From Candidatus Saganbacteria bacterium (GTDB lineage Bacteria > Margulisbacteria > WOR-1 > XYC2-FULL-46-14 > XYC2-FULL-37-10), in assembly GCA_016223245.1 (NCBI GenBank), contig JACRPL010000016.1, positions 1,128 to 65,127 on the forward strand: a stretch of DNA of 64,000 nucleotides, read 5' to 3'. The position numbers were made by a program, and so were the translations under genes. Below the pieces are notes generated by a model that saw only the letters and a program-made list of their open reading frames with translations, was not told where the DNA came from and did no database searches. Position 1 is the stretch's first letter. Each line of letters begins with the position of its first letter. Of this stretch, positions 3,510 through 21,641 are shown one piece after another.

Positions 3510-3620
3510 ATATTGGCAGTTAGATAGAGTTGCCATTCGTAAGGAATGATTTTTGGCAAGTTTTTGTTATCGGTTGTTGATTGATGAAAAAGGGGGAAAA
3601 TTGATGAAAAAGGGGGGAAT

Positions 3621-5306
3621 ATGAAAAATAAAATACTAGTTTATTCGCTGTTAGTTGTAAGCTGTATGTTCCTGCTGTCTGCTGTCTCATTAGCGGAAAT
3701 ACCGAGGACTATTAATGTCCAGGGGCGTGTTAGCGATAAAGGCATTCCAATTTCTGACGGGAAATATCAAATGTCTGTTGACTTTACGGACAAAGATGGG
3801 AACACGATCGCAGATGGCACGGAAAAAATATTTAATGATAAAGAAATAAAGAATGGCATGTTTAATTTGCAAATTAATTTGACTGGTGCCAATGATTGGC
3901 AATTAAAATTTGATAAGCCTTATTGGGTTCTTGTTGAACTTCCGAACTTAGGCTTGAAGTTTTTGCAACCCTTAACCTCCGTTCCATACGCCTTAAACGC
4001 GGATAGCCTTGGCGGCCTCCCTGCGACTTCGTATGCCACAAAAGATGCAAGTGGAAAGATCATTGGCGCATCGGGAGATTTTGTGAAAAAGAGCGGGGAT
4101 GATATGAGCGGGGTACTTGGGATTTCAGCTAAGGATGAAACAGCGGCTTTACGCGTTACGGACGACAGGACGACTATTACTCCTCCATGGTTTGGAATAC
4201 CTTTTGGTGCTATTGCCGCCAAGGGCGATGGAACGGTTGGCTTAAGCGCATATAGTAAAAACAATATGGGGATTTATGCTAAATCAGATTCAAAGGCAGG
4301 AATATTTGGAGTTGGGAAAGAAGCAGGCGTACATGGTGAAAAATCCAATGATGTCTTTGGCGAGCTTGGGACTGCTCGTTATTTCGCAGGCGTTTATCCG
4401 CCCATGGGCGTTTTTGGAACATCAACGGATATAGGTATTTATGGCTCAGTGGGGGAATCCTCCAAAGCGACGACATTGTCAGGCAAAAAGATCCCGTCAA
4501 TTGGTGTTGCAGGCTGGTCGCCTGATGGGAGAGGGGTTAGCGGTGGAAGCTCCACTGGGAGTGGCGTCTATGGAAGTAGCTGGTATGAATTTCCGGATAC
4601 TAGCTTATGGGTAAACAATAAGGATTACGCAGCAGGTGGATATTTTGAAGCACAAAAAGGATTTGGAGTAATTGGAACTTCTTTTTCGAATAATGGCGGA
4701 AATGGTGGCGGAGTTTTGGGAAGAAGTTTGGATACAAACGATGTTGTATCAGGCTTTTTTGCGAAAAATTTTGGTGTTGCAGGAATTAGCAATAAAGGAA
4801 ATGGTGTTTTTGGCGTTAGCAGTATGAACGATGGAATTTATGGGTACTCGCATGATAAAAACCATGCTGGGGTCTACGCGACGAATGCTGCCGCCACAGG
4901 AAACGCGATAAAAGCAGATGGAAAAGTTCAAATTGGATCGACAAAGGACCAATATTATGCTGATGTTGTTTTGGAAATTAATAAAGGGAAAATACAAATA
5001 GATAACGAAAGTAAAACAACTACTGTTGGGCCTGCAGCTTATTCAATTCATAATGTGGAGATAAATAAAATCGTCGGGAAAGTAACATTAAACGCTTCCA
5101 ATTCCAATTCTTACAATGGCGTAACTGTAACTAATGGTTACGTGAAAAAAGATTCTATAATATTATTAACTATTTTTGACTCAAGCTTTTCTCCCGCATC
5201 GGCGCACGACCAAGCTCTAGTTATCACTAAGCAATATGATGGGGGCTTTGAAGTTGTTTTCAGGTCAAAGCCAATAGGTGGATTTAATTTTCTAGTGATC
5301 AATTAG
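3621..5306 (+). CDS. Glycine-rich fibre-like surface protein with signal peptide and tail-fibre-like KSGDDMSGVL motif (paralog family, subfamily B)
   Basis: It has a signal peptide, a PRTINVQGR motif, PYALNADSLGGLPATSY...KKSGDDMSGVLGI, GVxGxS-type glycine repeats and the C-terminal GGFNFLVIN shared with the 19375 gene. Confidence 0.6.
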   Translation: MKNKILVYSLLVVSCMFLLSAVSLAEIPRTINVQGRVSDKGIPISDGKYQMSVDFTDKDGNTIADGTEKIFNDKEIKNGMFNLQINLTGANDWQLKFDKPYWVLVELPNLGLKFLQPLTSVPYALNADSLGGLPATSYATKDASGKIIGASGDFVKKSGDDMSGVLGISAKDETAALRVTDDRTTITPPWFGIPFGAIAAKGDGTVGLSAYSKNNMGIYAKSDSKAGIFGVGKEAGVHGEKSNDVFGELGTARYFAGVYPPMGVFGTSTDIGIYGSVGESSKATTLSGKKIPSIGVAGWSPDGRGVSGGSSTGSGVYGSSWYEFPDTSLWVNNKDYAAGGYFEAQKGFGVIGTSFSNNGGNGGGVLGRSLDTNDVVSGFFAKNFGVAGISNKGNGVFGVSSMNDGIYGYSHDKNHAGVYATNAAATGNAIKADGKVQIGSTKDQYYADVVLEINKGKIQIDNESKTTTVGPAAYSIHNVEINKIVGKVTLNASNSNSYNGVTVTNGYVKKDSIILLTIFDSSFSPASAHDQALVITKQYDGGFEVVFRSKPIGGFNFLVIN

Positions 5307-5375
5307 TAAACTGTAATCTTAGCCGCAAACGCCTATCCGCTTGACAATTATACTTAAATAAACTATACTTTATAT

Positions 5376-6608
5376 ATGCAAGGTAAAAATAATGTTCTAA
5401 TTAGAAGCTTGGAAGAAGTAATTAATAATACAATAAAAGAGAAGCACTCCGCTCTTGTGTTCGGGCCGCGCCAGGTAGGGAAGACAACGCTAATAAAAAA
5501 GTGCCTATCAAAAACAGAAAATCTGGGATCGTATTATCTGCAAAACCCCGAAATACGGGAACAATTTGAGAAAGACCCTTCTTTGCTAATCCGCCAGGTT
5601 GAAGCTATTGACGGGAACCCGTATATTTTTGTCGATGAAGCCCAGAAGGTGCCGGAACTTTTTGACTCGATGCAGTACTTGATCGACGACAAAAAAGCGC
5701 AATTCTTGATCACGGGGTCTTCCGCTAGAAAATTGCGGAGGAAGGGAGCAAATATGCTTCCTGGCAGGGTGAAATCCTGCCGCTTAGACCCGCTAAATTG
5801 GGGCGAATTCGGATGGATAAAAGGAAGCCATATCAAGGAATTAAAAATTGACAATATCAATTCGAGAGTTGACTATTCGCTGGAAAAAATGCTTGTTTTC
5901 GGAGCCCTGCCCGGCATTGTATTGATCGAAGATGAAGAAGAAAGAAAGGATATCCTGAAATCGTATTCGAATATTTATTTGGAAGAAGAGATCAGGGCGG
6001 AATCCTTGAGCAGAAAGATCGGGGCATTTTCAAGGTTCCTGGAACTGTCGGCAAACGAATCGGGGACAAGCCCGAATCTGTCGAAGCTTTCAATGGAAGC
6101 AGGGGTAAGCGCTCCTGCCATCAAAGAATTTTATAACCTGCTTGTTGATACGCTTGTGGCTGAAAAAGTCGAACCATACCTGAAAAATGCGAGAAAAAGG
6201 ATACTATCATCGCCAAAATATTATTTCTTCGATATCGGGGCAAGAAATGCCGTGTCCAGGATGCCATTGAAAATGGAATTGGTAAATACGCAAAAAGGGA
6301 CGCTTTTTGAGCATGCTGTAATTCTGGAAATCATCAGAAGAATAAGAGTATTAGGCGAAAATTATAAAGTTTGTTTCTGGAGGACAAGTGGAGGGGCTGA
6401 AGTGGATTGTATCCTCGATCTTGGGGATAGAGTTGTACCTATAGAAATCAAGGCCAGCAAGAAGGTCGCATTATCCGAGGTTAAAGGCTTGGAAATATTT
6501 TTGAATGATTATCCCGAGGCCGAAAATATTGGTTTTGTAATTACCATGGGGGATAGGCCGGAGAAAATAACAGATAGAATAATTGCTGTTCCGTGGGATT
6601 ACATATAG
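5376..6608 (+). CDS. AAA-type ATPase of the COG1373 / DUF4143 family
   Basis: It has a Walker A motif (GPRQVGKTTL) and a Walker B motif (FVDEAQ), and its length and architecture are typical of COG1373. Confidence 0.6.
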   Translation: MQGKNNVLIRSLEEVINNTIKEKHSALVFGPRQVGKTTLIKKCLSKTENLGSYYLQNPEIREQFEKDPSLLIRQVEAIDGNPYIFVDEAQKVPELFDSMQYLIDDKKAQFLITGSSARKLRRKGANMLPGRVKSCRLDPLNWGEFGWIKGSHIKELKIDNINSRVDYSLEKMLVFGALPGIVLIEDEEERKDILKSYSNIYLEEEIRAESLSRKIGAFSRFLELSANESGTSPNLSKLSMEAGVSAPAIKEFYNLLVDTLVAEKVEPYLKNARKRILSSPKYYFFDIGARNAVSRMPLKMELVNTQKGTLFEHAVILEIIRRIRVLGENYKVCFWRTSGGAEVDCILDLGDRVVPIEIKASKKVALSEVKGLEIFLNDYPEAENIGFVITMGDRPEKITDRIIAVPWDYI

Positions 6609-6650
6609 TCGCTCACTTTTAATTGATCGGCGCATCATCCATCCCTATAA

Positions 6651-6806
6651 CGATCTAATAATAGATATTTTATTTTTGATTCAAGTTTTAAAGCTTCACC
6701 GGCACAGGATCAAGCGCTTGTCATCGCAAAACAATATGATGGCGGCTTTGAAGTTATGTTTAGGCCAAAGCCCACGGGCGGCTTTAATTTTCTTGTTATA
6801 AATTAA
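6651..6806 (+). pseudogene. C-terminal remnant (about 51 codons, no start) of a subfamily-B fibre paralog
   Basis: It translates to ...FDSSFKASPAQDQALVIAKQYDGGFEVMFRPKPTGGFNFLVIN*, which matches the C-terminus of the 3621 gene, and there is a stop immediately upstream. Confidence 0.6.
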
Positions 6807-6928
6807 ATTCATAGGCCCGTATTTGTAGTTTCTTTATCCGCCCAAAGTAATTTTTGGGCGAGGTTTTTTTGAGTATGAGGAATGTAAATACTTGAAACTT
6901 GACAAATACAAGGAATATGGTATGATTA

Positions 6929-8062
6929 TTGCAAATGTTGCCACGCTATTATCAGAATTTAGAGGAATATCTACATCCCAATAAGGTTTTGGTGATATAT
7001 GGTGCAAGGCAAGTTGGCAAAACTACGCTTCTCCAAACTTTTTTCAAGAATACTAAGCTTAAATATAAAATAGACTCTGGTGATAATATTAAGGTTCAGG
7101 AAATATTGGGTTCACAAGATTTTTCAAAAATATTGGATTACGCGTCAGGGTATCAGCTTATAGTATTGGATGAAGCGCAAAGGATCCCGAATATCGGAAT
7201 GGGGCTCAAGATTCTTGTCGATCAAATCCCGGGGATTCTAGTGATCGCTACAGGGTCTTCTTCTTTCGAGCTTTCCGGCCAAATTGGCGAGCCGCTAACC
7301 GGACGGAAAAGAACCCTTACAATGTATCCATTGTCCCAAATAGAGCTGCTCAAGCTATTTAATGCCCATGAATTAAATGAAAAGCTAGGCGAATGGCTCA
7401 TTTTCGGAGGATATCCAGCAGTCATTACTTCAAAAACAAGAGAAGAGAAAATTAGCGTACTTGAGGAATTGGTGAATTCCTATTTGTTGAAAGATATACT
7501 TGAACTCGAGAAAGTTAAAGGAGCCCAGGTGCTAGTTAATCTTCTCAGATTGCTTGCTTTTCAGGTTGGGAACGAGGTTTCTTTGTCCGAACTCGCGAAT
7601 AAATTGAATATTGATTATAAAACCGTGGCTCGGTATATAGACCTTTTTGAAAAAGCTTTTGTCCTATTTGGCTTGTCTGGATTTTCGAGGAATTTAAGGA
7701 AGGAAGTTACAAGGAAGAAGAAATATTATTTTTATGACAATGGCATCCGAAATGCCATCATTTCAAATTTTAATAATCTTGATATGCGCGATGACATAGG
7801 AAAATTGTGGGAGAACTTTTTAGTCTTAGAAAGGCTTAAAACACAGGAATATATGCAGGTACACGCAAATAACTATTTTTGGAGAACTTGGGACGGGAAG
7901 GAAATTGATTGGATCGAAGAGAGAGAAGGGAAACTCTTCGCTTATGAATTTAAATACAAAAAAGATAAAGTTGGCTTGCCTAAAGATTTTATAACCTCAT
8001 ATCCAAATTCGGCATGGGAAATAATAACATCTGATAATTATTTGCATTTTCTCCTGACTTAG
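6929..8062 (+). CDS. AAA-type ATPase of the COG1373 / DUF4143 family (second copy)
   Basis: It has Walker A (GARQVGKTTL) and Walker B (VLDEAQ) motifs. Confidence 0.6.
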   Translation: MQMLPRYYQNLEEYLHPNKVLVIYGARQVGKTTLLQTFFKNTKLKYKIDSGDNIKVQEILGSQDFSKILDYASGYQLIVLDEAQRIPNIGMGLKILVDQIPGILVIATGSSSFELSGQIGEPLTGRKRTLTMYPLSQIELLKLFNAHELNEKLGEWLIFGGYPAVITSKTREEKISVLEELVNSYLLKDILELEKVKGAQVLVNLLRLLAFQVGNEVSLSELANKLNIDYKTVARYIDLFEKAFVLFGLSGFSRNLRKEVTRKKKYYFYDNGIRNAIISNFNNLDMRDDIGKLWENFLVLERLKTQEYMQVHANNYFWRTWDGKEIDWIEEREGKLFAYEFKYKKDKVGLPKDFITSYPNSAWEIITSDNYLHFLLT

Positions 8063-8142
8063 GACACCCCCACTAATTGTGCAAAAGGCCGCGCATAAAA
8101 AAACCGTGCGAGGCGTTTCAATTATTCCTGCTGCACAATGGC

Positions 8143-8171
8143 TTGCCCCCCCCCCAGAAATATGCTATTAT
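8143..8171 (+). promoter_or_regulatory. Sigma70-like promoter TTGCCC-N17-TATTAT whose spacer contains a C10 homopolymer (8146..8155)
   Basis: The sequence ttgccccccccccagaaatatgctattat sits about 12 bp upstream of ATG 8183. Confidence 0.45.
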
Positions 8172-8182
8172 TTGCCAATAAG

Positions 8183-9874
8183 ATGAAAAGAGTATTGTAT
8201 ATTTTATTGGTCATATTATTGGCAATTAGCTCAAGCGCTTTTGCAGCTACCCCGCATATTATAACTGTCCAAGGCAGATTGTTGCGATCTGGCGGCATCC
8301 CCGTCAACGGAATTAAAACCGCGACCTTTATGATAATCGAGGAGCCAAATTTGTTATTATGGTTGAGCGATCCAATGCAAGTAACCCTAATAGCGGGTGT
8401 TTTTTCAGTTGATCTCGACTTGGATAAGGTTGATGACGAAAGCTTGAGCTCCCCGAATCTATTAACTTTTGATAAGCCTTGTAAAATAATTACTAATATT
8501 GATGGAACGGTTTTTGAACAAAAGATCGCTGCGGTTCCTTACGCCTTAAACGCGGAGAAACTTAACGGTATGAATATCACGAAATTTGCAACACTGGATG
8601 CGAGCGGCAATATTATCGGCGCGAAGGCGGAAAAGTATGTAAAAAAGACTGGCGATGTAATGAGCGGCGGGCTTATTATATCAAGCGGCGGGGCAGATTT
8701 TGGGCTAGTGGCGAGCGGTGAAATCGGGGGTGTTAAAGGAACATATCTGGACAATAGCGATGCTATTGGGATGCTTGGTTACGGCAAAAAGCTGGGATTT
8801 GCAATTGTTGAGGGGAAAAAAATCAGCAAGGGAACCGAATTTTATGGCGCATACGGTAAATTCACCGATCTCGCGCAAGGAGGTCTTGGCGTCCAATTCC
8901 CCGGGAAAAAATCGTTCGGAGCCTGGGGTGTCGGCGGCGTTGCTGGGGGTTATTTTGAAAGCCAAAGCGGATATGGCTTGATTGCGATCGCAAGCAATGG
9001 GTCCGAAGGCGGGGCTTTGGGCGGCTATAATGTATTTGATACATCTGATACTAAGTTTGGAGTTGCAGGAATAAGCGATTCTGGCAATGGAGTTTATGGC
9101 GATGGCGACGCGGCCTATGGCGGGGAAATAAACGGGATATTTAAGAAAGCCGGTGTTTTTGGAAAAGGCGGGGCTAAGACGAGCGGTGTTCTGGGGTATT
9201 CTGAAGTCGACAACCCAAATCGCGCAGGAGTTGTCGGTATCAATCCTAACGGATACGCGGGGATATTCTCCGGCATTAAAGGCATGAATGTATCAGGGTC
9301 TCTTGAGGTAAAAGGTGATATCCGAGGAATTGATTGGATAAGCTTTGCACCATTTGATAAAAATTGGCCTGCACCTTTCCCGACCGACCTGGCCGACACC
9401 GTGATAGGTTATTCGAGCGGCGGCATGTTTGAAGAAGCTGTTCAGGTTGTTTCTCCAACAGAATCAATGGACCCGTATATTGTCTTTGCAAGCTCCTATC
9501 TTAACACTCCTAAGAGAGGAAAGATATTGATCAAGGCAACAGGGACTGTTCAGACTTCGGATGACGGCAACTCTCCATTTTGGGTTTCGGTCAAGCTTTT
9601 ACAGACAACTTACCAAGGAACGACGAAGAAAGAATTGCCAGGCGATCTTATTACAGTGGCAGGCACAAAAGCCAGCAAGATATTCAAGTATCCGTTCACT
9701 GTACAGGGGATGTTTGATGTTTCATCTGGTTTCCCAACCTTGTTTAACCCTAATAACTACGCCGCGCTTATTAGCAATCAATTTACTTTATCTTGCGCCA
9801 TGAAAACTTACGGCGGAAAGCCTTTAAATATTACGGGAAACATTCAGGCAATTTATATGCCGAATATTAATTAA
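8183..9874 (+). CDS. Glycine-rich fibre-like surface protein (paralog family); likely start MKRVLYILLVILLAISSSAFA
   Basis: It has a signal peptide, TPHIITVQGRL, PYALNAEKLNG...KKTGDVMSGGLII and glycine repeats. The track ORF start at 8138 crosses the poly-C tract and lacks a signal peptide. Confidence 0.55.
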   Translation: MKRVLYILLVILLAISSSAFAATPHIITVQGRLLRSGGIPVNGIKTATFMIIEEPNLLLWLSDPMQVTLIAGVFSVDLDLDKVDDESLSSPNLLTFDKPCKIITNIDGTVFEQKIAAVPYALNAEKLNGMNITKFATLDASGNIIGAKAEKYVKKTGDVMSGGLIISSGGADFGLVASGEIGGVKGTYLDNSDAIGMLGYGKKLGFAIVEGKKISKGTEFYGAYGKFTDLAQGGLGVQFPGKKSFGAWGVGGVAGGYFESQSGYGLIAIASNGSEGGALGGYNVFDTSDTKFGVAGISDSGNGVYGDGDAAYGGEINGIFKKAGVFGKGGAKTSGVLGYSEVDNPNRAGVVGINPNGYAGIFSGIKGMNVSGSLEVKGDIRGIDWISFAPFDKNWPAPFPTDLADTVIGYSSGGMFEEAVQVVSPTESMDPYIVFASSYLNTPKRGKILIKATGTVQTSDDGNSPFWVSVKLLQTTYQGTTKKELPGDLITVAGTKASKIFKYPFTVQGMFDVSSGFPTLFNPNNYAALISNQFTLSCAMKTYGGKPLNITGNIQAIYMPNIN

Positions 9875-9877
9875 ATC

Positions 9878-11452
9878 ATGAAAAAATTATATAAATTAAT
9901 AATTACATTGTTGGTCATTGGCCATTGGTCATTGGTCATTATCGCACCGGCGGCCGCTATTCCCAACAAAATAATTAACATCCAGGGAAAACTGACGGAC
10001 GATCACAATAAGATCGTCAAAAGTGTAAAACAGATCCGTGTCAGCATGGTTGATTCGAACAATCAAAGCATTTGGATTTCGCCTGTTATCACCATAACGG
10101 TAAATAATGCCGGAATATTCAATGCTGAATTTGACCTATCTTCCGCAACAGGCGTTGATTTTAATTCGCCTTACAGCCTTATTATTAATGTTATCGATGA
10201 TGCCGACAAAGTTACGACTCTCAATCCGCAGTCTTTGACCTCTGTTCCTTATGCTTTAAATAGTGACAAATTTAACGGCCTTTCATCTTCGAGTTTTGTC
10301 GTGCTCGATGATTTTGGGGAAATTGCTGGTGAACTTGCGGGCAATGTTAAAAAATCCGGGGATTCAATGTCCGGGAGCCTCAAGATAACAGGCGGTGAAA
10401 GCGATGATTATGGCGTCGAGGCAAGCGGGTAGTCGGGCGCAGTGAAAGGGACATGGATAGGGGATAATAATTTCTTCGGGGTATTAGGCGGCTATAGTTA
10501 CAAATATGGGGACGATGTGTCTTTGCCCGGGGTGTATGGGCAGCATTCAAGTTATACTGGCGCTGCCAGAGGAGGCCTTGGCGTTATAAGAAATATTCTA
10601 TGGTCTTTTGGTGTTTGGGGAAAAGGGCTGACCGCGGGCGGATATTTTTCTAGCGCGAACGGGACAGGTGTCCTTGGAAAATCTACGGGAACCGGCGGAA
10701 TATTTGGCGCTTATAATTCAAATTCGACAACTGACAAGTATTATGGAGTCGCAGGTGTTAGCGTTGCAGGCAACGGGGTGTATGGCGAGATAACTAGCGA
10801 TACGTTTAGCAGCGAGTGGAAAGCAGGGGTTTACGGCAAAGGAGGCGCAAAAACCTCTGGAGTTATGGGATACACAACAACAGATAAAGACAATGCGGCG
10901 GCAATTGTCGGGATCAATCCAAAAGGATACGGAGGGGATTTTACAGGAAAAAACGGCGTAAAAATAAATGGGCCGCTTGAAGTTTCGGGCGGGATACAAG
11001 GCAAGGGGCTTCACTGGGCGGAAAAAGGAATTACCGCATCTAATTTTTTTACCAAGACAAGCATTGGCGGTTATTATTACCATAAAATGATCAAGCATAT
11101 ATATGTGACATTCCCATATTCAGGCTATGCCCTTGTTCAAGCAAGCGGCATATTCTCAAACAATGACGAAAGTTTTTCCCAAATGTCCGCGCAAATAACC
11201 GACAACGAGTATTTGGATCCTGACGGAAAAAACTTTATTATTGATGGATCGGTCGCTGTTGTGGGATTAACAAATCCAACTGGGCAAGGATTCTATCCAT
11301 CGTTTCCATTTGCGTCATCAAGGGTTTTTGGAGTGGAAGGAGGCAAGTCGTATCATTTTCATTTGATCGGATTTCTAAAAACAACGAAAAGCGACGTTAA
11401 ATTTAATTTTGATGGCGCCCTTAATTGCATGTTCTTCTCGAGGAAATACTGA
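9878..11452 (+). pseudogene. Fibre-like surface protein paralog interrupted by an in-frame TAG at 10430..10432
   Basis: The ORFs 9878..10432 and 10442..11452 are in the same frame and the paralog alignment runs straight through the stop (GVEASG*SGAVKGTWIG versus GIESSGKTAGVKG). Confidence 0.5.
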
Positions 11453-11453
11453 T

Positions 11454-13007
11454 ATGAAAAGATTATCTATGAATATAATTATTACATTGTTGGTCATTTA
11501 TCATTGGTCATTTGTCATTTGTGCGCCTGCGCGCGCGGATGTCCCCAAAATAATGAATATCCAAGGCAAATTGACCGATCCGAATTCCAAGGCTGTTTCC
11601 GGGGCCAAAAAATTAAGATGTTCTCTGGTTGACAATAAAGGCGCGGCTGTTTTCAATTCTAAGGTTTATGATATCCCGCTAAATAGCGACGGAGTGTTCA
11701 ATGTGGATATTGACATATCTTCCACTCTCGCAGATTTTAATTCGCCATATACTTTGAATATTATTATTATCAATGAAGACGGGTCGACTTCTATTCTTGA
11801 GCCTAAGGCTCTAACTTCCGCACCATATGTATTAAATGCCGGAATGCTCGGAGGGCTTAAGCCCGCCTCTTTTGCGGCAAAAGATGCGGATGGCAAAATA
11901 GTCGGGTCGGTCGCCGGTTATGTCAAAAAAAGCGGGGATGAAATGAGCGGGGGCTTAAAAGTGAACGCCGGTAAATCTAATTTCGGGATCGAATCAAGCG
12001 GAAAAACGGCAGGGGTCAAAGGTTTATCGGCTTCAAGCGGCGATAGGTGGGGAGCGCTTGGCGGAGAGAATTATGGCGTTTACGGTCAGTCAACGGCTAA
12101 TGCGATAGGCATAATAGGCGTTTATGGCGTTTATGGCGTTTATGGCTCTGGAAAAACGTTTGGAGGGTATTTTCAAAGTTCAACAGGTATTGGCGCTATC
12201 GGGAAAACAACCGGCGCTAATGGCGGAGTGTTTGGCGGATACAACACCGCAGAGGCTAATGATAAATGGTTTGGGGTTGCAGGGGCAAGCGATTCGGGAA
12301 ACGGGATATATGGCGAAGTAGCCAGTAATACTTTGGACAGCGATTGGAAGGCCGGAGTTTACGGCAAGGGGAGCAATACGACGAGCGGAGTTTTTGGATA
12401 TACTGATTCAACGAGTGGCGCAGGCGTTAAGGGCGTAGATAATAGCGGATATGGGGCGATATTTTCGGGGGAAAAGGGCGTAAAAGTCGACGGACCTGTA
12501 AATATTTCAGGGACAATTACCGCAAACAATTTGCCGGGAATTGCTTACGATAACTATTTTAATTTTTCTAATACCAATCTAAAGTCGAGCACGGCAGTAA
12601 TCATTAAATCTGTTGAAATAGATGTGCCTGCTCCCGGGTATATATTGGTCCAATCAAGCGGAACCTTGTATTCATACGCCACTACCGATGTTTTAATTGG
12701 CTTAGGAATACTTAATATTGATAATTTCTCTTCTCAAGTCTTTTATGATGTATACTTTGGGACAAATCCATTGGTTTCGTATGTTTTTCTAGCGGATAAT
12801 TCGAAATTTAATTTTTCATGCCAGTTTGAAGCAAAAAAATCGATGGGCCCCAATATATATTTCCCATTTTCTACAAGCAATGTATTTGAAACGAAAACTG
12901 CCGGCAAACAAAAGTTTTATTTGACGGGATATCTTAAACATTCTGCTTCTTCCGGCCGATTAGATGTTTCAGGCTCGATACAAGCTATCTATTTCCCAAG
13001 CAAGTAG
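11454..13007 (+). CDS. Glycine-rich fibre-like surface protein (paralog family, subfamily A)
   Basis: It begins MKRLSMNIIITLLVIYHWSFVICAPARA, then PKIMNIQGKL, PYVLNAGMLGG...KKSGDEMSGGLKV and repeats such as GVYGVYGVYG. Confidence 0.6.
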   Translation: MKRLSMNIIITLLVIYHWSFVICAPARADVPKIMNIQGKLTDPNSKAVSGAKKLRCSLVDNKGAAVFNSKVYDIPLNSDGVFNVDIDISSTLADFNSPYTLNIIIINEDGSTSILEPKALTSAPYVLNAGMLGGLKPASFAAKDADGKIVGSVAGYVKKSGDEMSGGLKVNAGKSNFGIESSGKTAGVKGLSASSGDRWGALGGENYGVYGQSTANAIGIIGVYGVYGVYGSGKTFGGYFQSSTGIGAIGKTTGANGGVFGGYNTAEANDKWFGVAGASDSGNGIYGEVASNTLDSDWKAGVYGKGSNTTSGVFGYTDSTSGAGVKGVDNSGYGAIFSGEKGVKVDGPVNISGTITANNLPGIAYDNYFNFSNTNLKSSTAVIIKSVEIDVPAPGYILVQSSGTLYSYATTDVLIGLGILNIDNFSSQVFYDVYFGTNPLVSYVFLADNSKFNFSCQFEAKKSMGPNIYFPFSTSNVFETKTAGKQKFYLTGYLKHSASSGRLDVSGSIQAIYFPSK

Positions 13008-13024
13008 TTTAATGTTCTACGATT

Positions 13025-13504: not shown

Positions 13505-13620
13505 TTTTTCACCCAAAATAATTTTAGCATATATTTCTGATCGAGTCAAAAAGGGATTGGAATTGAGTCCATCCGTCCCTATCTTTTTTATGTTATAATT
13601 TATAGACTTAGGAGCTGATT

Positions 13621-13890
13621 TTATGCGAAGCGATAATATTAAAAAAATGGGGCCGCCCCGCGCCTTAGTCCACCGGCCTTCCTGCCATTTGTGATTGGAT
13701 CGCCATGGGACACAAGGGGATGCATTATTCTCTGCCATCGAGAGAACTCATAGCAGACACAGTTGAAACAGTAGCCGAAGCCCATCAATTAGATGGTCTT
13801 ATTTTGCTAACTGCTTGCGACAAGATAACACCCGGGATGCTTATGGCGGCGGCACGGTTGAATATCCCTTCTATGTTAATCATTGTTGTA
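13621..13890 (+). pseudogene. Degenerate duplicated 5' fragment of ilvD ([11 protein letters not shown]... fused to ...[66 protein letters not shown])
   Basis: It is about 90% identical at the DNA level to 15129..15183 and 15337..15540, and the atgttataatt promoter motif upstream is also duplicated. Confidence 0.8.
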
Positions 13891-14233
13891 GCCAGGCTTG
13901 ATAAAGTTATGGGAGAGTTGGAGAAATTCCGCGAAGATAGGGTTCTCGCAAAGAAAAAAGACGACGACCAGGACGAGAAATTGGCGGCGCATGAAAAGAG
14001 ATTGCTTCGCGTTGAGTCAAAGGTTGGAGTTTAGAACCGGATACCCAGGGAATTTGGATAATAGGAACAATAATTTTTTCCAAATAACCTAATCTCCCAA
14101 TTCCCAGTCGCAAATTTCCCAATTACCAAATTTCCTCGACAACGCGATTGCCCAAAAACCGCATCATTATGGTATAATTCACAAAAGAAGAGAAAAAAGG
14201 TATGACGCTATTAGTTGAGGCCAGGGCTTCAGC

Positions 14234-14587
14234 GTGATTTGTTCAGCCGCGCTCGGGGTAAAGGAAAAAAAGATGGACGAAGAAATAAAAAATATAACAA
14301 AGCGGATCGCCGAAAAATTTAATCCCAGAAAACTCATTCTCTTTGGCTCGTCTGCTTTAGGTGCGAGAAAAGAAAATAGCGATGTGGATTTATGCGTAGT
14401 TAAAGACTATATCCAAGATCGGACAATGGATTCAGTCGCGATCAGGAAAATTATTGGGAAAAATTTGATACCTTTTGATATTGTAGTTTTAGGCAGAGAT
14501 GAATATGACAGCCGGAAAAATATTTGGGGAACTTTGCAGTATGAGATAGATAAAAAGGGAATAGTTCTTTATGAGCGCAGAGATTGA
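14234..14587 (+). CDS. Nucleotidyltransferase-domain protein (MNT-type antitoxin/toxin component)
   Basis: It has the LILFGSSALGARKENSDVDLCVV motif (GS...D.D). Confidence 0.6.
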   Translation: MICSAALGVKEKKMDEEIKNITKRIAEKFNPRKLILFGSSALGARKENSDVDLCVVKDYIQDRTMDSVAIRKIIGKNLIPFDIVVLGRDEYDSRKNIWGTLQYEIDKKGIVLYERRD

Positions 14588-14957
14588 AAAAGAGAAAGCC
14601 GTAATAATAGGCGAATGGGAGCGGAGAGCGCTTGATGACCTTGTATCGGCGGAAATCATATTGAAGGAGAGCGATAAATATGAGATTTCCGTCTATCATT
14701 CGCATCAGGCAGTTGAAAAATTTTTGAAAGCAAACCTGTTAAAACTGGGGCAAACATTTAAATTCACCCACGATATTGATGTTTTGTTCGAACAAGTTTT
14801 TGGCGATGATAAAGATAAGGCGGCAGCCGAAAAAATCGCCCATCTTAACGCTTTATATCCGTCTTTAAGATATCCCTTTGGGGAAAAGATAACCAAGGAC
14901 CAGGCGATTAATTGCCTGGCGATAGCAAAAGAAGCGATTAGCCGGTTGCGAAAATAG
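14571..14957 (+). CDS. HEPN-domain protein (partner of the MNT at 14234)
   Basis: It overlaps the MNT gene and carries HSHQAVEKFLKANL, matching the HEPN R/H..EK.LKA signature. Confidence 0.55.
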   Translation: MSAEIEKEKAVIIGEWERRALDDLVSAEIILKESDKYEISVYHSHQAVEKFLKANLLKLGQTFKFTHDIDVLFEQVFGDDKDKAAAEKIAHLNALYPSLRYPFGEKITKDQAINCLAIAKEAISRLRK

Positions 14958-15128
14958 TCGTGGCGGTGGAAGGCTATGGGAAATAAGGGGGTTAGACATA
15001 GAAGATAGAAGCTTGTTTCAAGAATCCACAGTCCAGCATCCAATTTCATAATTAGCTTCCGAAACTATGGCCAAGATAACCTCAAACGATTATTTCATGT
15101 TATAATTGCTTCCTCAGGGGGTATCATC

Positions 15129-16772
15129 ATGCGAAGCGATAATATTAAAAAAATGGGGCCGACCCGCGCCTTAGTCCACGCGACAGGCGTTTCTGATAAA
15201 GAACTTTCAAAACCATTTATCGGCCTTGCTTCCTCATTTACCGACTTGGTGCCGGGGCATGTTGATATGCGATCGCTTGAAAGAGTTATAGAAAAAGGGA
15301 TACATGCCGGCGGCGGAGTTTCATTCACATTCGGCCTTCCTGCCATTTGTGATGGGATCGCCATGGGACACAAGGGGATGCATTATTCTCTGCCATCGAG
15401 AGAACTCATAGCAGACACTGTTGAAACAGTCGCAGAAGCCCACCAATTGGATGGTTTAATATTGCTCACCGCTTGCGACAAGATAACACCCGGAATGCTA
15501 ATGGCGGCCGCGCGATTAAATATCCCTTCTATTATAGTTACAGCAGGCCCAATGCTCGCAGGTTGTTATAAAGGCGAGAGGCTTGATCTTGTCCACGACG
15601 CTTTCGAGGCAGAAGCGGCTTACAAGCAGAAAAAAATATCAAAAAAAGATTTCGATAGTTTAATTTTAAGCGCGTGTCCCGGAGCCGGTTCGTGTTCCGG
15701 TTTATTTACCGCAAATACTATGGCCTGTGCGACGGAAGCGATGGGAATGTCCTTGCCATTCTGCGGGACATCCCTTGCCGTATCTTCCAAGAAAAAAATG
15801 ATCGCCTATGAAAGCGGCAAAAGGATAGTTGAGTTGGTATCCGAAAATCTTACTCCAAGAAAGATCATGAACATGAACTCATTCATGAATGCGATACGCA
15901 TCGATATGGCGCTTGGCGGATCGACGAATGCTGTATTGCATCTGACAGCGATCGCGCAGGAAGCGGGGATCGATCTGACGCTTGATATATTTGACAAGAT
16001 AAGCCGTGAAACCCCGCATATTACAAATATCCGCCCCGGCGGAAACCATTTTATGGAGGATTTTGAGAATGCCGGCGGCATTCCCGCCGCTTTTTCCGTC
16101 CTTCAAAAACTCTTGAAAGATAATCCAACAGTTTCAGGGATGTCGGTCAAACAGATCGCAAAATCTGGAGTTGTTTATGATCGCGAAGTCATAAAAACAT
16201 TGGACAATCCGTATCATAAGCAAGGAAGCCTCGCCGTTCTTAAAGGAAACATCGCTCCTGAAGGGGCAGTTGTAAAACAAACCGCGGTTTCACAGAAAAT
16301 GATGAAATTTTCGGGAGAAGCGATTGTTTTTGATTCCGAAGATGCGGCGCAAAAAGCGATCGTTTCCGGTAAAGTCAAAAAAGGGCATGTTGTTGTCATA
16401 AGATATGAAGGGCCAAAAGGCGGACCCGGGATGCGGGAGATGCTTTATCCAACATCGGCTATCGCCGGTATGGGGCTTTCTGATTCAGTCGCATTAATTA
16501 CTGATGGGCGATTTTCCGGTGGAACAAGAGGTCCATGCATTGGCCACGTCGCGCCGGAAGCCGCTTTAGGCGGACCGATCGCGGCTGTAAAAAATGGGGA
16601 CGTTATTGATATAGATATTCCGAACAGGAGAATAGAGTTGCGGGTAACGAGCAGCGAGTTGAAAAAACGATTGGCGGCTGTAAAACCGCATGAGCCGAAG
16701 ATCAAAGCCGGGTGGCTTGCGAGATATCAGAAGCTTGTAACTTCGGCAAGTGTGGGCGCTATACTTAAGTAG
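15129..16772 (+). CDS. ilvD: Dihydroxy-acid dehydratase
   Basis: It contains [19 protein letters not shown] and [11 protein letters not shown], and is the length of a full IlvD/Edd enzyme. Confidence 0.9.
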
Positions 16773-16800
16773 GATAGCAGGAGGTCACTCTGAAGGGAAA

Positions 16801-17127
16801 ATGAAAACAGATAAAATTGATGAAAGTTTAATTAAAGATGCCGCGGCTAAGATAGCGGCAAAGCTTAATCCTAAAAAAATTATTCTTTTTGGGTCGCATG
16901 CATGGGGGAAAGCTTCGGGAAGCAGCGATTTAGACCTTTTTATAATAGCACCTTCGGTTTTACGTCGAGATGAAAGGGGGGTTGAAGTTTCCAAACTTTT
17001 TCCAGATAGGTTGTTCCCACTCGACGCGCTTGTATATACCCCGGAAGAAGTTGAGCAAAGTTTAAGGCGAAAAAATCCGTTTGTGAAAGAAATTTTGGAA
17101 AAAGGGAAAATTCTCTATGGCGCCTGA
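16801..17127 (+). CDS. Nucleotidyltransferase-domain protein (MNT-type)
   Basis: It has the ILFGSHAWGKASGSSDLDLFIIAP motif. Confidence 0.6.
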   Translation: MKTDKIDESLIKDAAAKIAAKLNPKKIILFGSHAWGKASGSSDLDLFIIAPSVLRRDERGVEVSKLFPDRLFPLDALVYTPEEVEQSLRRKNPFVKEILEKGKILYGA

Positions 17128-17530
17128 TTCTTTAAATTTTGAGGATTGGTTTTTAAAAGCGGGAAATGAGATAAAAGCCGCTGATGGGATTTTCTTCTAT
17201 TATGAAGATCCGCCGACGGACATGATCTGTTATCATGCCCAACAGGCGGCGGAAAAAACGCTTAAAGCTTTTTTGATCTATAAGTCCGAACTGGCCCCCA
17301 AAACGCATGATTTGGTTGAACTTGTAAATTTGTGTATTAAGCAGGACAAGGATTTTTTAAGCCTGAAAGAGCTTATTGAAGTTTTAAATAAGTATTATAT
17401 TGAATCAAAATATCCACCGGACAATCCTATTATTTATTCTAAAGACGAAGCAAAGAGCGCTATAGCGCTAGCAAAAAACATTTTGAAATTTTCAAAAAGC
17501 AAGGTCTCAAAAGGGGCGGTGTTAAGATGA
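17117..17530 (+). CDS. HEPN-domain protein
   Basis: It has YHAQQAAEKTLKAFL and overlaps the upstream MNT gene. Confidence 0.55.
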   Translation: MAPDSLNFEDWFLKAGNEIKAADGIFFYYEDPPTDMICYHAQQAAEKTLKAFLIYKSELAPKTHDLVELVNLCIKQDKDFLSLKELIEVLNKYYIESKYPPDNPIIYSKDEAKSAIALAKNILKFSKSKVSKGAVLR

Positions 17531-17769
17531 GCCTCCCAAAATATTTCAAAGGAATATTGTGGTTCGCAGATTTCAATAAACTCTCCCTAAAAGAGGACAG
17601 AAATATTATTTTGTTCCAAGCGCTTGAGAAGGGTAGAATGGAGCACCTCAAATATCTGAAAAACAAGCTTGGCGCAAAAGCGATCGTTGATTTTGCAAGA
17701 AAAAATTCGAATAAATTCAGCAGGAAAAGCGTATTAACTTTCGCGGAAACGGTTTTTGGTGGCAAATAG
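17527..17769 (+). CDS. Small hypothetical protein, probable partner (AbiEi-like antitoxin role) of the downstream AbiEii-type gene
   Basis: It overlaps the start of the 17756 gene and is 80 aa. Confidence 0.3.
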   Translation: MSLPKYFKGILWFADFNKLSLKEDRNIILFQALEKGRMEHLKYLKNKLGAKAIVDFARKNSNKFSRKSVLTFAETVFGGK

Positions 17770-18415
17770 GATGCAGCCGCTTCACTTTGAGGTCCTTGAT
17801 GAGAAAAGAATTAAAGCGTTCAAGGATATTTCCGCTATATTGGACGAAAAATATTATCTTGCCGGTGGCACAGCGCTGGCTCTTCAGCTCGGGCATAGAA
17901 AATCCTATGATTTTGATGTTTTCGGGAACAAAGATATAACTTTTGCCGTTAAAAAAAAGATTATAAAAGGGCTTAGCGGCTATAAGATCAAAACGCTTGT
18001 AGATTCCTCCGATGAATTAAGCCTTATCCTTAATGAAGAGATCAAACTTACAGTCCTGAATTATTATTGGGATCCGATAAAGTCGCTTGTAAAGCTTAAA
18101 GGCTATCTTCCTCTTCTTTCAATATTGGATATCGCGGCAACAAAAGCATACGCACTTGGAAGAAGAGGCAATTACAGAGACTATTTCGACCTTTATATTA
18201 TCATAAAAAATGAGTATGCGACTTTAAGAGCCATAATTTCTTGCTGTAAAAAAAAGTATGGAGAACTCTTCAGCGAAAAGATGCTTCTTGAGCAATTGAC
18301 CTATATTGGCGATCTGGACGAAAAAGAAAAACTCATGTTTTCTTCGGAGAAATTTGTTCCGTCGAGGAAAATAATAGAGTTCTTTAAAAATAAGATCAAG
18401 GGGAACTCGCATTAA
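17756..18415 (+). CDS. Nucleotidyltransferase AbiEii/AbiGii toxin family (DUF1814-like)
   Basis: Near its N-terminus it has YYLAGGTALALQLGHRKSYDFDVF, matching the GGTAL...R.S.D.D signature. Confidence 0.55.
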   Translation: MVANRMQPLHFEVLDEKRIKAFKDISAILDEKYYLAGGTALALQLGHRKSYDFDVFGNKDITFAVKKKIIKGLSGYKIKTLVDSSDELSLILNEEIKLTVLNYYWDPIKSLVKLKGYLPLLSILDIAATKAYALGRRGNYRDYFDLYIIIKNEYATLRAIISCCKKKYGELFSEKMLLEQLTYIGDLDEKEKLMFSSEKFVPSRKIIEFFKNKIKGNSH

Positions 18416-18579
18416 AGAAGCGTGCTATACTTAGGAAGGCGTAATGCGTAACGCGCGATGCGGGATGCGAGGGGGAATTATATGAAAGACGCAGCTGTTA
18501 ATTGGTTTGCAAAGGCAGATCTGACAAAATATGCGCAAGCAGGAGATATTGTTGATCGATTTGTAAAATAAATGTTAAA

Positions 18580-18774
18580 ATGAAAATAACAAAAAGATCG
18601 AAAGAATATTTTATAGATAATATTTCGCGGACAAACCAGGTTGTTTTTACAGTGCTCATAGTCGGCACATTTGTAACAGGGTTCAATATTATTGTTTTTA
18701 TTATCGGCAGTATTATTTTTCTTTTACTTTTGCTTGCAGGAACTTTTTTAACATCAAAAACGGAGGATCAATAA
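18580..18774 (+). CDS. Small membrane protein, paralog of 1084..1272
   Basis: It begins MKITKRSKEYFIDNISRTNQVVFTVLIVG followed by a second TM segment. Confidence 0.4.
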   Translation: MKITKRSKEYFIDNISRTNQVVFTVLIVGTFVTGFNIIVFIIGSIIFLLLLLAGTFLTSKTEDQ

Positions 18775-18775
18775 T

Positions 18776-18883
18776 ATGAACCAATATTTAAGCTTGGTGC
18801 CGATGGTGATATTTTTAGTTGTAGTTTTGATCTTTGTGGCTATTGTTGCGTTTAGCGGCAAGCCGCCGAAGGGGATACTATAG
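18776..18883 (+). CDS. Small hydrophobic peptide (35 aa) ending ...FSGKPPKGIL
   Basis: It follows an RBS (ggagga) and is a paralog of the 947 peptide. Confidence 0.35.
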   Translation: MNQYLSLVPMVIFLVVVLIFVAIVAFSGKPPKGIL

Positions 18884-18927
18884 GGGCTATCGGCGCAAGC
18901 AGGAGATCAGGCAAAAAATCTGATAAA

Positions 18928-19269
18928 GTGAAGGCAGGGCATAATATGGCAAAAGAATATGAATTAGTTGTAAATAATTTTTTGGATAGGATAAGCGCCT
19001 TAAGGCCAAGCATCAGCAGCATGTATCTTTTCGGTTCGCATGCAAGAGGGACCGCTCGACCGGATTCTGATTATGATATTCTCATTGTTGCGCCTAAAAA
19101 AAATAAGGAATTAAAAAGCAAGCTGTATGACGCTGTAATGGATATTGAGTTGGAAAAGGGCGCGGACATTTCGTTGAAAGTGTTAAAACAGGACCAATTT
19201 GACAGGCTTCGGGAATTTAACACGCCATTCATTAAAAATGTTTTAAAAGAAGGGATTAAAATTGCATAA
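18928..19269 (+). CDS. Nucleotidyltransferase-domain protein (solitary MNT)
   Basis: It has the LFGSHARGTARPDSDYDILIVAP motif. Confidence 0.55.
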   Translation: MKAGHNMAKEYELVVNNFLDRISALRPSISSMYLFGSHARGTARPDSDYDILIVAPKKNKELKSKLYDAVMDIELEKGADISLKVLKQDQFDRLREFNTPFIKNVLKEGIKIA

Positions 19270-19374
19270 CAGCGCGTTAATAAAAGAATTTATTTCGGAA
19301 ACTAAGAAGATTTTAAAGATCTAGAAAGAAGTTCCTGTTGACTGTTGTTGATTGATAATTAGGAGGAAATAATC

Positions 19375-21225
19375 ATGAAAAAATTAATATTGTTCCTGGC
19401 CCTGTGCTCTGCTTTCTGCTTTCTGCTGTCTGCTGTCTTATTTGCCGATGTGCCGAGGACAATAAATATCCAGGGGCGATTGACGCAAAAAGATGGCGCG
19501 CCGATAAAAGACGGCCACTATGATTTCACGTTTTTCTTGGTAGATGAAAATAACAACTTCATGTCAACGATACTTAACGGTATAAACCCGATAGTAAATA
19601 ATACAAACAAGCAAACTCTTACTATAGATAAAAATGGGATATTCAATGCAATCCTTGAATTTGATCCAACATTTAGTTTTGATCCCGCTGTTTATCAGAT
19701 CAAAAAAATTGTTTTGGTTTCCAATGTCATAATTGACCCAGGTCAGCCCAAGGGGGTTGGCTTTGCGCAAGATATTACAGCTGTCCCTTATGCGATAAAT
19801 GCTGCAAATGCCGATAAGATCGGCGGAAAAACTTTTGATGAAGCGCTAAAAGCAAGTGGTGTTTCCGTAGGCGGTGGAGGCGTTGTTAACGAAAAATTTG
19901 ATCATTTGTATGTTGGCGATCAAAACAAAAATCATATAACTATGGTACCGCAAGGCAATAGTCTGGCTATATATGCTAAAGGAAATTATGTTGGCATTAA
20001 TGCTGTTGGTTATAGTTTTGGCGGAACATTTGAAGCTGATCCTGTTAAAGGAGTAGGGGTTTCTGGAGCTGGTGGAATTGGCGTGCAGGGCATTGGCGCA
20101 ACATATGCTGGTGGTATTTTTTATGGGCCAAATATAGGCGTTTTCGGTGCGTTATCTAGCGGACCACAAAATGGAAATAATTATGGCGTCTTAGGTGTAA
20201 CGTCTATTGCTGCTGGGAAGTATCTTCCTGGCACCATTAATTCTTATGGGGTTGCAGGAGTATCAGATACGGGAACTGGCGTTTTCGGAAAGAGCGATCA
20301 ATGGATAGCGATAGATGCAAAAACTAACTCGACAAAAGTTGAAGTGGCGGCTGTACATGGAGAAGCATCCAATTTTAAAGTGTTTGGCGAACTTGGGGTA
20401 TCCCGTTATTTCGCAGGCGTTAATCCGCCCATGGGCGTATTTGGAACATCAACGGATATTGGCGTTTATGGTTCCGTCGGAGATTCCACCAAAGTGACGA
20501 CATTGTCAACAAAAAACATCCCATCAATTGGTGTAGCTGGCTGGTCGCCAGATGGGAGAGGCGTGAGCGGGGGCAGCAGTAGCGGGACGGGGGTGTTTGG
20601 GGTCTCACAAGATGGTCTAGGCGGCAAATTTGAAAGCAAAAGCAGTGATGGTATTCATGCTTCGGGTATTTATGGAGTGTATGGCCTAAGTACTTCAAAA
20701 GATGGGATAGGAATATATGGCGCAAATGTTAATGGTATTGGAGTTAGAGGATGGAGCAGTACATCTATTGGAGGAAAATTTGAAAGTGTGAATGATGCAG
20801 GAATTTCAGGATATAGCATGAAAAGCAATGGCGTCCATGGGATTAGCGATCAATCATACGGTGTCTATGGAATTAGCAAAAGCGATTTAACCGCCGGAGT
20901 GCGCGCGCAAAACCAAAATGGCGGCCCCGCATTGTTTGTTGACGGCCCAATTCAAATGCCTGCAGGCAACGCCTCTGTAACTAGCGGCTCGCCCACAGCG
21001 ACAATAAATAAGGCTGTTGGCAGGGTAAATATTTCCGGGACATCCCAGTTTGATGTAACGGTAAATAATTCTTATGTGCATAAGGATTCTATTATATTAT
21101 TGACTATAATAAATTCTAATTCTAATTATGATCAGGCTGTGACGATCAAAAATCAAGTTAACGGGGCATTTACTGTCGGGTTCCGCTCAATAACTCAAGG
21201 GTTCAATTTTCTTGTTATAAATTAA
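19375..21225 (+). CDS. Glycine-rich fibre-like surface protein (subfamily B paralog of 3621)
   Basis: Its signal peptide is encoded by (CTGCTKT)n heptamers. It has VPRTINIQGRL and VPYAINAANADKIGG, and shares 'ELGxxRYFAGVxPPMGVFGTSTDIGxYGSVG' and the C-terminal FNFLVIN with the 3621 gene. Confidence 0.6.
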   Translation: MKKLILFLALCSAFCFLLSAVLFADVPRTINIQGRLTQKDGAPIKDGHYDFTFFLVDENNNFMSTILNGINPIVNNTNKQTLTIDKNGIFNAILEFDPTFSFDPAVYQIKKIVLVSNVIIDPGQPKGVGFAQDITAVPYAINAANADKIGGKTFDEALKASGVSVGGGGVVNEKFDHLYVGDQNKNHITMVPQGNSLAIYAKGNYVGINAVGYSFGGTFEADPVKGVGVSGAGGIGVQGIGATYAGGIFYGPNIGVFGALSSGPQNGNNYGVLGVTSIAAGKYLPGTINSYGVAGVSDTGTGVFGKSDQWIAIDAKTNSTKVEVAAVHGEASNFKVFGELGVSRYFAGVNPPMGVFGTSTDIGVYGSVGDSTKVTTLSTKNIPSIGVAGWSPDGRGVSGGSSSGTGVFGVSQDGLGGKFESKSSDGIHASGIYGVYGLSTSKDGIGIYGANVNGIGVRGWSSTSIGGKFESVNDAGISGYSMKSNGVHGISDQSYGVYGISKSDLTAGVRAQNQNGGPALFVDGPIQMPAGNASVTSGSPTATINKAVGRVNISGTSQFDVTVNNSYVHKDSIILLTIINSNSNYDQAVTIKNQVNGAFTVGFRSITQGFNFLVIN

Positions 21226-21231
21226 TCTATA

Positions 21232-21639: not shown

Positions 21640-21641
21640 TC

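Follow-up and report, generated by a model that had tools for sequence, protein, structure and literature searches.

Putative adhesive fibres resembling mosaic adhesive trimers in a tandem paralog array of Candidatus Saganbacteria

Introduction

The closest described counterparts of the proteins treated here are the mosaic adhesive trimer (MAT) proteins, a family of 21 proteins in Bdellovibrio bacteriovorus HD100 that earlier annotations had described as phage-tail-fibre-like proteins or cell-wall anchors (Caulton et al. 2024; PMC10769870). In these proteins a conserved, beta-rich N-domain of ~130 amino acids (aa) comes right after the signal peptide, has no homologue in the PDB and presumably keeps the fibre attached to the predator's surface; the middle part forms a trimeric, beta-helical fibre; and the tips are variable and evolutionarily swappable, with S74 chaperone/protease domains, novel beta-sandwiches, and TNF-like and C-type-lectin domains among them (PMC10769870). 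The same paper describes S74 as a chaperone for trimeric fibres. MATs have been described as the prey-recognition equipment of Bdellovibrio, and their wider occurrence has been linked to predatory or symbiotic lifestyles, Table S3 of that paper giving MATs from Omnitrophica, Planctomycetes, the FCB group, Myxococcales and others with ties to predator-associated lifestyles (PMC10769870). Here we analyse 64 kb (the window) of a Candidatus Saganbacteria metagenome-assembled genome, taken from a contig of 91.6 kb, in which five paralogous genes (A to E) and one gene remnant are found. It is fairly likely, in our judgement, that the five genes encode secreted, trimeric, MAT-like adhesive fibres with swapped tips.

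Results and Discussion

Five paralogs with a common layout among cellular genes

Five genes on the plus strand (Table 1), all recorded on the contig as encoding hypothetical proteins, had been proposed as a paralogous array in the initial annotation, and the open reading frame (ORF) listing with its translations finds each of them in place. Their relationship is borne out by tblastn, in which the paralogs match each other with E-values from 1e-17 to 1e-102 at pairwise identities of 25-47%, C and D being 40% identical over their full length. All five products have signal-peptide-like starts: MK(K/R/N) leads into a hydrophobic core, and an A-x-A-like end borders on a conserved box; the signal peptides were judged from sequence features, together with a helix at residues 4-22 in an AlphaFold2 (AF2) model of D. 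The box itself, P(R/K)xI(N/T)(V/I)QG(R/K), stands right after the signal peptide in 5/5, and the shared signal peptide and N-terminal box noted before are thus general. About 95 residues further on, (S/A)(V/A)PY(A/V)(L/I)N is again found in 5/5. It is the first half of a central box that had been assigned to all paralogs, and this assignment stands for the PYA(L/I)NA half but not for the other, since DAxGxIxG...(Y/F/N)VKK(S/T)GDxMSGxL is present in A, B, C and D and absent from E. Paralog E also has inserts in its N-domain, the longest shaft and a tip of the 'FLVIN' type, as in A. Identities among the paralogs are 26-46% in the N-domain, 29-57% in the neck and 34-51% in the shaft. A Pfam scan of the five proteins at E <= 1 shows nothing above noise.

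The gene content of the window is cellular throughout, as had been remarked for the surroundings of the array, and includes ilvD, ilvB, ilvN, ilvC, aspartate kinase, plsY, a TonB-dependent receptor, queA, tgt, secD/F, ftsK, an ABC importer and dnaG. A complete prophage with capsid, terminase and tail genes had been named as the contrary case; no capsid, terminase, portal, tail, sheath or baseplate gene is found in the 64 kb. In a PHROGs scan the five paralogs show nothing above noise, and no whole-protein relatives are found in the 50,697 phage genomes of INPHARED (at the BLAST level) or in IMG/VR. Because phage structural genes are lacking in the 64 kb, PHROG matches and relatives in the phage and viral collections searched are lacking too, and signal peptides are present, we reject prophage tail fibres as an explanation.

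An N-terminal domain with a remote match to that of MATs

The NCBIfam model NF053851 (Bdello_MAT_N, "mosaic adhesive trimer family chimeric fiber protein") is the top match for the N-terminal regions of all five proteins, with E-values of 1.4e-8 for E (34.7 bits), 1.6e-6 for B, 6e-5 for D, 1.7e-4 for C and 6e-4 for A. The alignments are collinear with the beginning and the end of the 162-position profile, and 67 of the 81 top relatives of the paralogs match the same model (best E-value 6e-14). In an AF2 model of D made with a 109-sequence alignment, the N-domain (residues ~30-122) is all-beta, with a predicted local distance difference test (pLDDT) score of 93-98. A Foldseek search of the PDB with this model returns no match at E <= 1e-3 and generic Ig-like similarity only; the two top 'minor tail protein' matches in the PDB and BFVD have root-mean-square deviations of 36-74 Å and are meaningless. 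PDB sequence searches with D and with the N-domain profile likewise yield noise only. An N-domain with no PDB match agrees with what has been stated for the N-domain of MATs. No relatives of the N-domain are detected in the phage and viral collections searched.

A neck box of phage tail fibre type

A YVKKSGDxMxGxL profile made from 20 family members finds just two distinct PDB sequences, both of them phage tail fibres: the 'long tail fiber proximal subunit' 9f4a, which carries ADGRYVKKAGDTMTGNLNINSS (E = 1.7e-7), and the 'putative tail fiber protein' 8jov (E = 2.4e-4). The likeness of the KSGDxMSGxL box to tail fibres, which the initial annotation had pointed out, is thereby upheld. Within the family the box is modular and sometimes occurs in two copies in one protein. 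Such phage-like modules in proteins whose N-domain has no relative in the phage and viral collections searched make up the chimeric pattern described for MATs (PMC10769870). Apart from YVKK(S/A)GDxM(S/T)GxL, the window proteins have nothing in common with the phage long tail fibres 9f4a and 8jov, from which they differ by their signal peptides, their cellular N-domain and the absence of any PHROG match.

A glycine-rich shaft

In the shaft, G(V/I)xG units follow one another irregularly, every 9-12 residues. Autocorrelation of glycine at lag 10 reaches significance in A and E (z about 4); in B, C and D it does not. Of the long glycine repeats once described for the array, the Gly-rich G(V/I)xG units are found in all paralogs; they are irregular, and a period of ~10 residues is significant in A and E only. 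A collagen-like protein was considered and rejected, as none of the five matches PF01391 and the glycine spacing peaks at lag 10 and not at lag 3; a distant N-domain relative (P0009) carries collagen repeats. The shaft of 180-325 aa is probably a trimeric beta-structure. The main indirect argument for this is that the same N-domain and GVxG shaft occur in relatives whose C-terminus is S74, described as a chaperone domain for trimeric fibres. The AF2 model of A, made with 8 sequences, has a pLDDT of 44 and is unusable.

Diverged tips and traces of rearrangement

Two classes of tip are found, one in A and E and the other in B, C and D, which are unrelated by profile-profile comparison (hhalign probability 0.5%). 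The tips of A and E are 49% identical. The tips are the most diverged part of the proteins: B, C and D are 20-30% identical to each other in this part, compared with 31-49% in N-domain and shaft. No PDB sequence relatives were found for either tip profile, and all five tips are of a non-S74 kind. Family members of 309-744 aa with mainstream N-domains also carry the 'FLVIN' tip seen in A and E; tips therefore move between fibres. Between strains, A and E vary at no more than 2-3 residues, which is uninformative on tip diversification. Six of eight A/E-type tips weakly match the C-terminal domain of the K1 capsule-specific polysaccharide lyase (PF24146; best E-value 4.9e-4), but all scores lie below the gathering threshold of 27 bits and the window proteins have no lyase domain.

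The array also bears traces of rearrangement. The 3' remnant, which the initial annotation had seen between A and B, is real: its DNA is 77% identical to the 3' end of A (5171-5305), and its translation is 79.5% identical to residues 518-561 of A and ends in the same FNFLVIN stop. Directly 3' of it lies a strong terminator-like hairpin with a 9-bp stem followed by a T-run, which suggests that the 3' end of the transcription unit has survived with the remnant; apart from this hairpin, a promoter and terminator scan gives counts equal to the shuffled expectation. Paralog C is interrupted by an in-frame TAG and can be read as two ORFs. Because TAG is an ordinary stop in the window, ending 13 of its 45 genes, C is probably a pseudogene or a split gene. 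The gaps of 3 bases between B and C and of 1 base between C and D suggest that B, C and D probably form one operon. A 221-nt block of E (20380-20600) is 81% identical to 4353-4573 in A, and repeat families show signal-peptide DNA common to C, D and the neighbouring gene ORF1444. The orphan remnant, the nonsense codon in C, the A/E block and the shared signal-peptide DNA all point, as read from the sequence, to ongoing duplication, recombination and decay.

A very large and largely unannotated family

An exhaustive search with the full-length paralog alignment, counted as cluster representatives at 50% identity, matches 22,883 representatives at E <= 1e-3, 4,225 at <= 1e-10 and 23 at <= 1e-30; most have no annotation, and many align over N-domain and shaft. 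Since only 23 are found at the strictest level, the window proteins form a small divergent branch of a very large family. Relatives were also collected with an N-domain profile, an 18-sequence profile and a 4-sequence profile against genome contigs; a word-indexed search with D found two relatives only, the candidates having probably been saturated by Gly-rich words. The typical layout is a signal peptide, then IPxxIsYQGxLtD...G.F...LG...PyWL...PR..LtsaPYA, then runs of GVxGxS. The closest named relatives are 'hypothetical proteins' of Margulisbacteria and Saganbacteria, and others come from Aminicenantes, Rhodothermales, Planctomycetota, Chloroflexi, Geobacteraceae, Caldiserica and several Patescibacteria. 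One relative (P0002) has the same architecture as the window proteins and, like them, lies among housekeeping genes. Pfam leaves the N-domain and shaft of the 81 top relatives unmatched, two S74 domains being the sole relevant matches; among 120 relatives listed, at least 17 have Peptidase_S74 (PF13884), and three (P0198, P0205, P0243) show the order N-domain, GVxG shaft, S74. Two relatives are named 'trimeric autotransporter adhesin' by the Joint Genome Institute. When the relatives were compared by protein length with Table S3 of PMC10769870, no identities were found.

Two Omnitrophota proteins of 238-240 aa (P0007, P0008) have the N-domain and a C-terminal transmembrane (TM) helix only. Their precomputed Pfam assignment is PF26986.1; the same proteins have no match in our local Pfam copy, and a newer Pfam release may therefore model part of them.

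Saccharibacteria, Parcubacteria, Uhrbacteria and Peribacteraceae are regarded as episymbiotic. N-domain relatives of the window type are found in each of these groups of the Patescibacteria, or candidate phyla radiation (loci L007, L008, L009, L010, L013, L015 and L016), and would fit a link between such fibres and cell-cell attachment.

Interpretation and alternatives

Paralogy, a common layout, the cellular context, remote homology to Bdello_MAT_N, the affinity of the neck box to phage fibres, the non-homology of the tips and the membership in a large unannotated superfamily are the observations on which our reading of the locus is built. They support the earlier proposal of a diversified fibre or adhesin family that is possibly phage-derived; trimerisation, passage of the outer membrane, surface display and adhesion would be expected by analogy with the Bdellovibrio family and the S74-bearing relatives. 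In the model that we favour, the proteins would be exported by Sec, lose their signal peptides by cleavage and assemble into trimeric fibres. The beta-sandwich N-domain (~100 aa) would hold the fibre at the producer's cell surface, followed by the neck with the phage-tail-fibre-type box (absent in E) and by the shaft of irregular G(V/I)(Y/F)GxS units, and the C-terminal tip would bind a target ligand. Duplication, tip exchange and decay would have given rise to a small repertoire of specificities and presumably to a wider range of surfaces or cells for attachment.

The window proteins resemble MATs in having a signal peptide followed by a remotely similar, predicted beta-rich N-domain, a presumably elongated middle, exchangeable tips and several paralogs per genome, as well as in their phage-tail-fibre-like sequence features and their chromosomal, non-prophage location. 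Several results nevertheless weigh against the MAT-like fibre reading. The NF053851 scores (19.6-34.7 bits) fall well short of the 60 bits set as the curated cut-off, which makes the relationship of the N-domain to Bdellovibrio MATs one of remote homology, as judged from sequence, and not of certified membership; it passes through one hidden Markov model and a chain of intermediates. At 517-616 aa the proteins are about half the size of a typical Bdellovibrio MAT. Their shaft is an irregular Gly-rich repeat of ~10 residues from which the Bdellovibrio capping-loop motif VG(G/N)xxxPxxxL is absent in all five, and a PDB search with the family profile leaves the solved MAT fibre fragments unmatched, a low-complexity FG-nucleoporin being the sole match. 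In the AF2 monomer models of A and D, shaft and tip have a pLDDT of 27-57. The tips are without a known fold, no route of export across the outer membrane was identified for the fibres, and the Saganbacterium host is not a known predator. Tail-spike-like fibres with S74 (PF13884) are linked to the family by the relatives just described, yet 0/5 window proteins have an S74 domain or the S74 motif SDxxxK. With YadA-like trimeric autotransporter adhesins the common point is the proposed role as a trimeric surface adhesin fibre, but the presumed anchor of the window proteins is N-terminal, in the opposite orientation. A YadA-type autotransporter was rejected, as the Pfam scan of the five proteins shows no YadA anchor, head or stalk domain; cargo of the type IX secretion system (T9SS) was also rejected, A, B, D and E having no C-terminal sorting domain (TIGR04183 / PF18962).

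The proteins could instead be monomeric Gly-rich beta-solenoids or non-trimeric envelope proteins, such as surface-layer or matrix proteins, that have only an Ig-like N-domain and a motif in common with MATs and phage fibres. The N-domain has a generic Ig-like sandwich fold that weakly resembles many unrelated proteins, and both the NF053851 scores below cut-off and the missing capping-loop motif would suit such proteins. We think it unlikely, however, because AF2 gives no confident monomeric solenoid for the shaft of D even with the 109-sequence alignment (pLDDT 40-57), the relatives ending in S74 argue for trimers, and the neck box is shared in the PDB with phage tail fibres only. That box, in turn, might suggest receptor-binding fibres of a phage, a prophage remnant, a tailocin or a contractile injection system, the rest of which has decayed or lies outside the window, which covers 64 kb of the 91.6-kb contig; the weak resemblance of 6/8 A/E-type tips to the phage K1 lyase domain, though below threshold, and the position of the array in a variable region where toxin-antitoxin and Abi genes abound point the same way. 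Such an origin is very improbable all the same, given that all copies have Sec-type signal peptides, which are absent from virion fibres, that the 64 kb hold no structural genes and PHROGs, INPHARED and IMG/VR no relatives, and that the relatives in other genomes likewise lie among housekeeping genes.

A different kind of alternative concerns not the fibres themselves but their partners. Two secreted families, ORF17-like and ORF1444-like, adjoin fibre genes in the window, in L001, in the Saganbacteria locus L005 and in a seven-gene array of the Margulisiibacteriota locus L022; 3' remnants of ORF1444-like genes lie directly upstream of A and E, and ORF1444 has signal-peptide DNA in common with C and D. 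The fibres could be one component, and the proteins of these two families the others, of a larger, lineage-specific surface appendage of Margulisbacteria and Saganbacteria, and the fibres would then not be free-standing adhesins. This synteny is seen within one lineage only, though, and could reflect shared ancestry; loci from other phyla have no such neighbours, nor do B, C and D, and neither family has a known function in Pfam or NCBIfam. A larger appendage is accordingly a minor possibility in our view. It would be a long step further, and one that we regard with considerable doubt, to see in the fibres the recognition arm of a predatory, episymbiotic or host-attached lifestyle, acting together with ORF17-like and ORF1444-like proteins; were that so, the Gly-rich G(V/I)(Y/F)GxS shaft, common to thousands of unannotated proteins and without a solved structure, would be a trimeric fibre fold of a new kind.

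The window proteins extend the MAT-like family to Margulisbacteria/Saganbacteria, the sister lineage of Cyanobacteria, with the local peculiarities of short length, a Gly-rich shaft without a solved structure and two uncharacterised tips. As a five-copy array that appears to be actively rearranging, they offer a clue to how uncultured groundwater Saganbacteria may attach to surfaces or other cells. The architecture and the logic of tip-swapping have already been published, so that the case is not surprising in kind and brings no new principle. Since the family is huge and scantily covered by Pfam, almost all of its named members bear the name 'hypothetical protein', and structures of the shaft and of these tips are lacking, work on its annotation and structure would be broadly useful.

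Table 1. Positions of the fibre genes, their parts and neighbouring features in the 64-kb window
Feature	Position	Strand	Length	Remarks
Paralog A	3621-5306	+	561 aa	Annotated as hypothetical protein MBI5701409.1
A, signal peptide	3621-3698	+
A, N-domain	3699-3998	+
A, neck	3999-4124	+
A, neck box	4080-4118	+		FVKKSGDDMSGVL
A, Gly-rich shaft	4125-4910	+
A, tip	4911-5303	+		'FLVIN' tip
Paralog B	8183-9874	+	563 aa	MBI5701412.1; length from ATG 8183, upstream ATG 8138 possible
B, box	8636-8674	+		YVKKTGDVMSGGL
B, tip	from about 9308	+		B/C/D type
Paralog C	9878-11452	+	524 codons	In-frame TAG at 10433-10435
C, first ORF	9878-10432	+		N-domain and box
C, second ORF	10442-11452	+		Shaft and tip
Paralog D	11454-13007	+	517 aa
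D, box	11919-11957	+		YVKKSGDEMSGGL
D, tip	from about 12504	+
Paralog E	19375-21225	+	616 aa	Between ilvD and ilvB
Tip remnant	6671-6805	+	44-45 aa	Ends ...GGFNFLVIN stop; no 5' part
Hairpin after remnant	6839-6860			Terminator-like
ORF17-like gene	17-931
ORF1444	1453-2649	+	398 aa	Secreted; length from ATG 1453
107-aa ORF	2669-2992	+	107 aa	Between ORF1444 and A
Two-TM ORF upstream of A	3049-3240		63-64 aa	Paralogous to that upstream of E
ORF1444-like 3' remnant upstream of A	3532-3585			...KFLLSVVD stop
Two-TM ORF upstream of E	18580-18774		63-64 aa	Paralogous to that upstream of A
ORF1444-like 3' remnant upstream of E	19329-19382			...KFLLSVVD stop
DUF4143 AAA ATPase genes (two)	5376-6608 and 6929-8062			Between A and B
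ilvD 5' fragment, duplicate	13623-13874			Upstream of intact ilvD
ilvD 5' counterpart	15129-15532
NTase/HEPN pair	14234-14957			Between the two ilvD 5' copies
AbiEii gene	17756-18415			Insert in ilv operon region
Lone NTase gene	18928-19269			Insert in ilv operon region
334-aa ORF	24319-25323		334 aa	Uncharacterised; GLRRTGKTS motif
1577-aa ORF	28911-33644	-	1577 aa	No Pfam match
678-aa ORF	42733-44769	-	678 aa	No Pfam match; adjoins PorV-like gene
PorV/PorQ-family and PorU-like genes	44830-46504	-
PorU-like gene	45782-46504	-	240 aa

Neighbouring secreted protein families

The product of ORF1444 has a C-terminus resembling FlgD-Ig and the C-terminal domain (CTD) of T9SS cargo (Pfam FlgD_ig, E = 1.1e-5). 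Remnants of ORF1444-like 3' ends immediately precede both A and E, and further upstream of each lies one of two paralogous ORFs with two TM segments; the A and E units thus descend from a duplicated segment in which an ORF1444-like gene was once present. The link between ORF1444 and the fibres is one of synteny only. The 107-aa ORF between ORF1444 and A has three tandem 11-residue repeats (NKKIDNGYAVL / NQKIDNGYAVL), looks like a coiled coil and lacks a signal peptide.

In Margulisiibacteriota and Saganbacteria loci, secreted proteins of the ORF17-like and ORF1444-like families recur beside MAT-like fibre genes (L022, 11628-19901; L001, 13864-15075; L005, 13052-13813). The seven-gene array of L022, which follows a fibre gene, contains homologues of the two families, with tblastn confirming one from each, and BNR/Sortilin-like proteins are encoded nearby in L001 and L022.

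A further pair of genes in the window encodes a PorV/PorQ-family outer-membrane protein (NF033709, E = 1.4e-21) and, beside it, a 240-aa protein that resembles the C-terminal part of the T9SS sortase PorU (E = 6.6e-17). The latter has weak FlgD_ig and Por_Secre_tail matches and is a paralog of ORF1444; in the window, weak matches of the T9SS CTD type are limited to these two neighbours. Such T9SS-like parts are unexpected in a Saganbacterium and could bear on the export of surface proteins.

An ilv operon with insertions

The array lies within and beside an ilv operon that is strewn with toxin-antitoxin genes, and the region is a rearrangement hot spot. The ilvD-ilvB-ilvN-ilvC operon is interrupted by three pairs of nucleotidyltransferase (NTase) and HEPN (HepT) genes, an AbiEii gene, a lone NTase gene, fibre gene E and a 334-aa ORF, the inserts spanning 14234-22049 and 24319-25323 of the window. 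A 5' fragment of ilvD is duplicated upstream of the intact gene at 92-98% nucleotide identity, with one NTase/HEPN pair between the two copies, and looks like a scar of insertion or recombination inside the operon. Elsewhere in the window, two long ORFs on the minus strand, of 1577 and 678 aa, have no Pfam match, and the shorter one adjoins the PorV-like gene.

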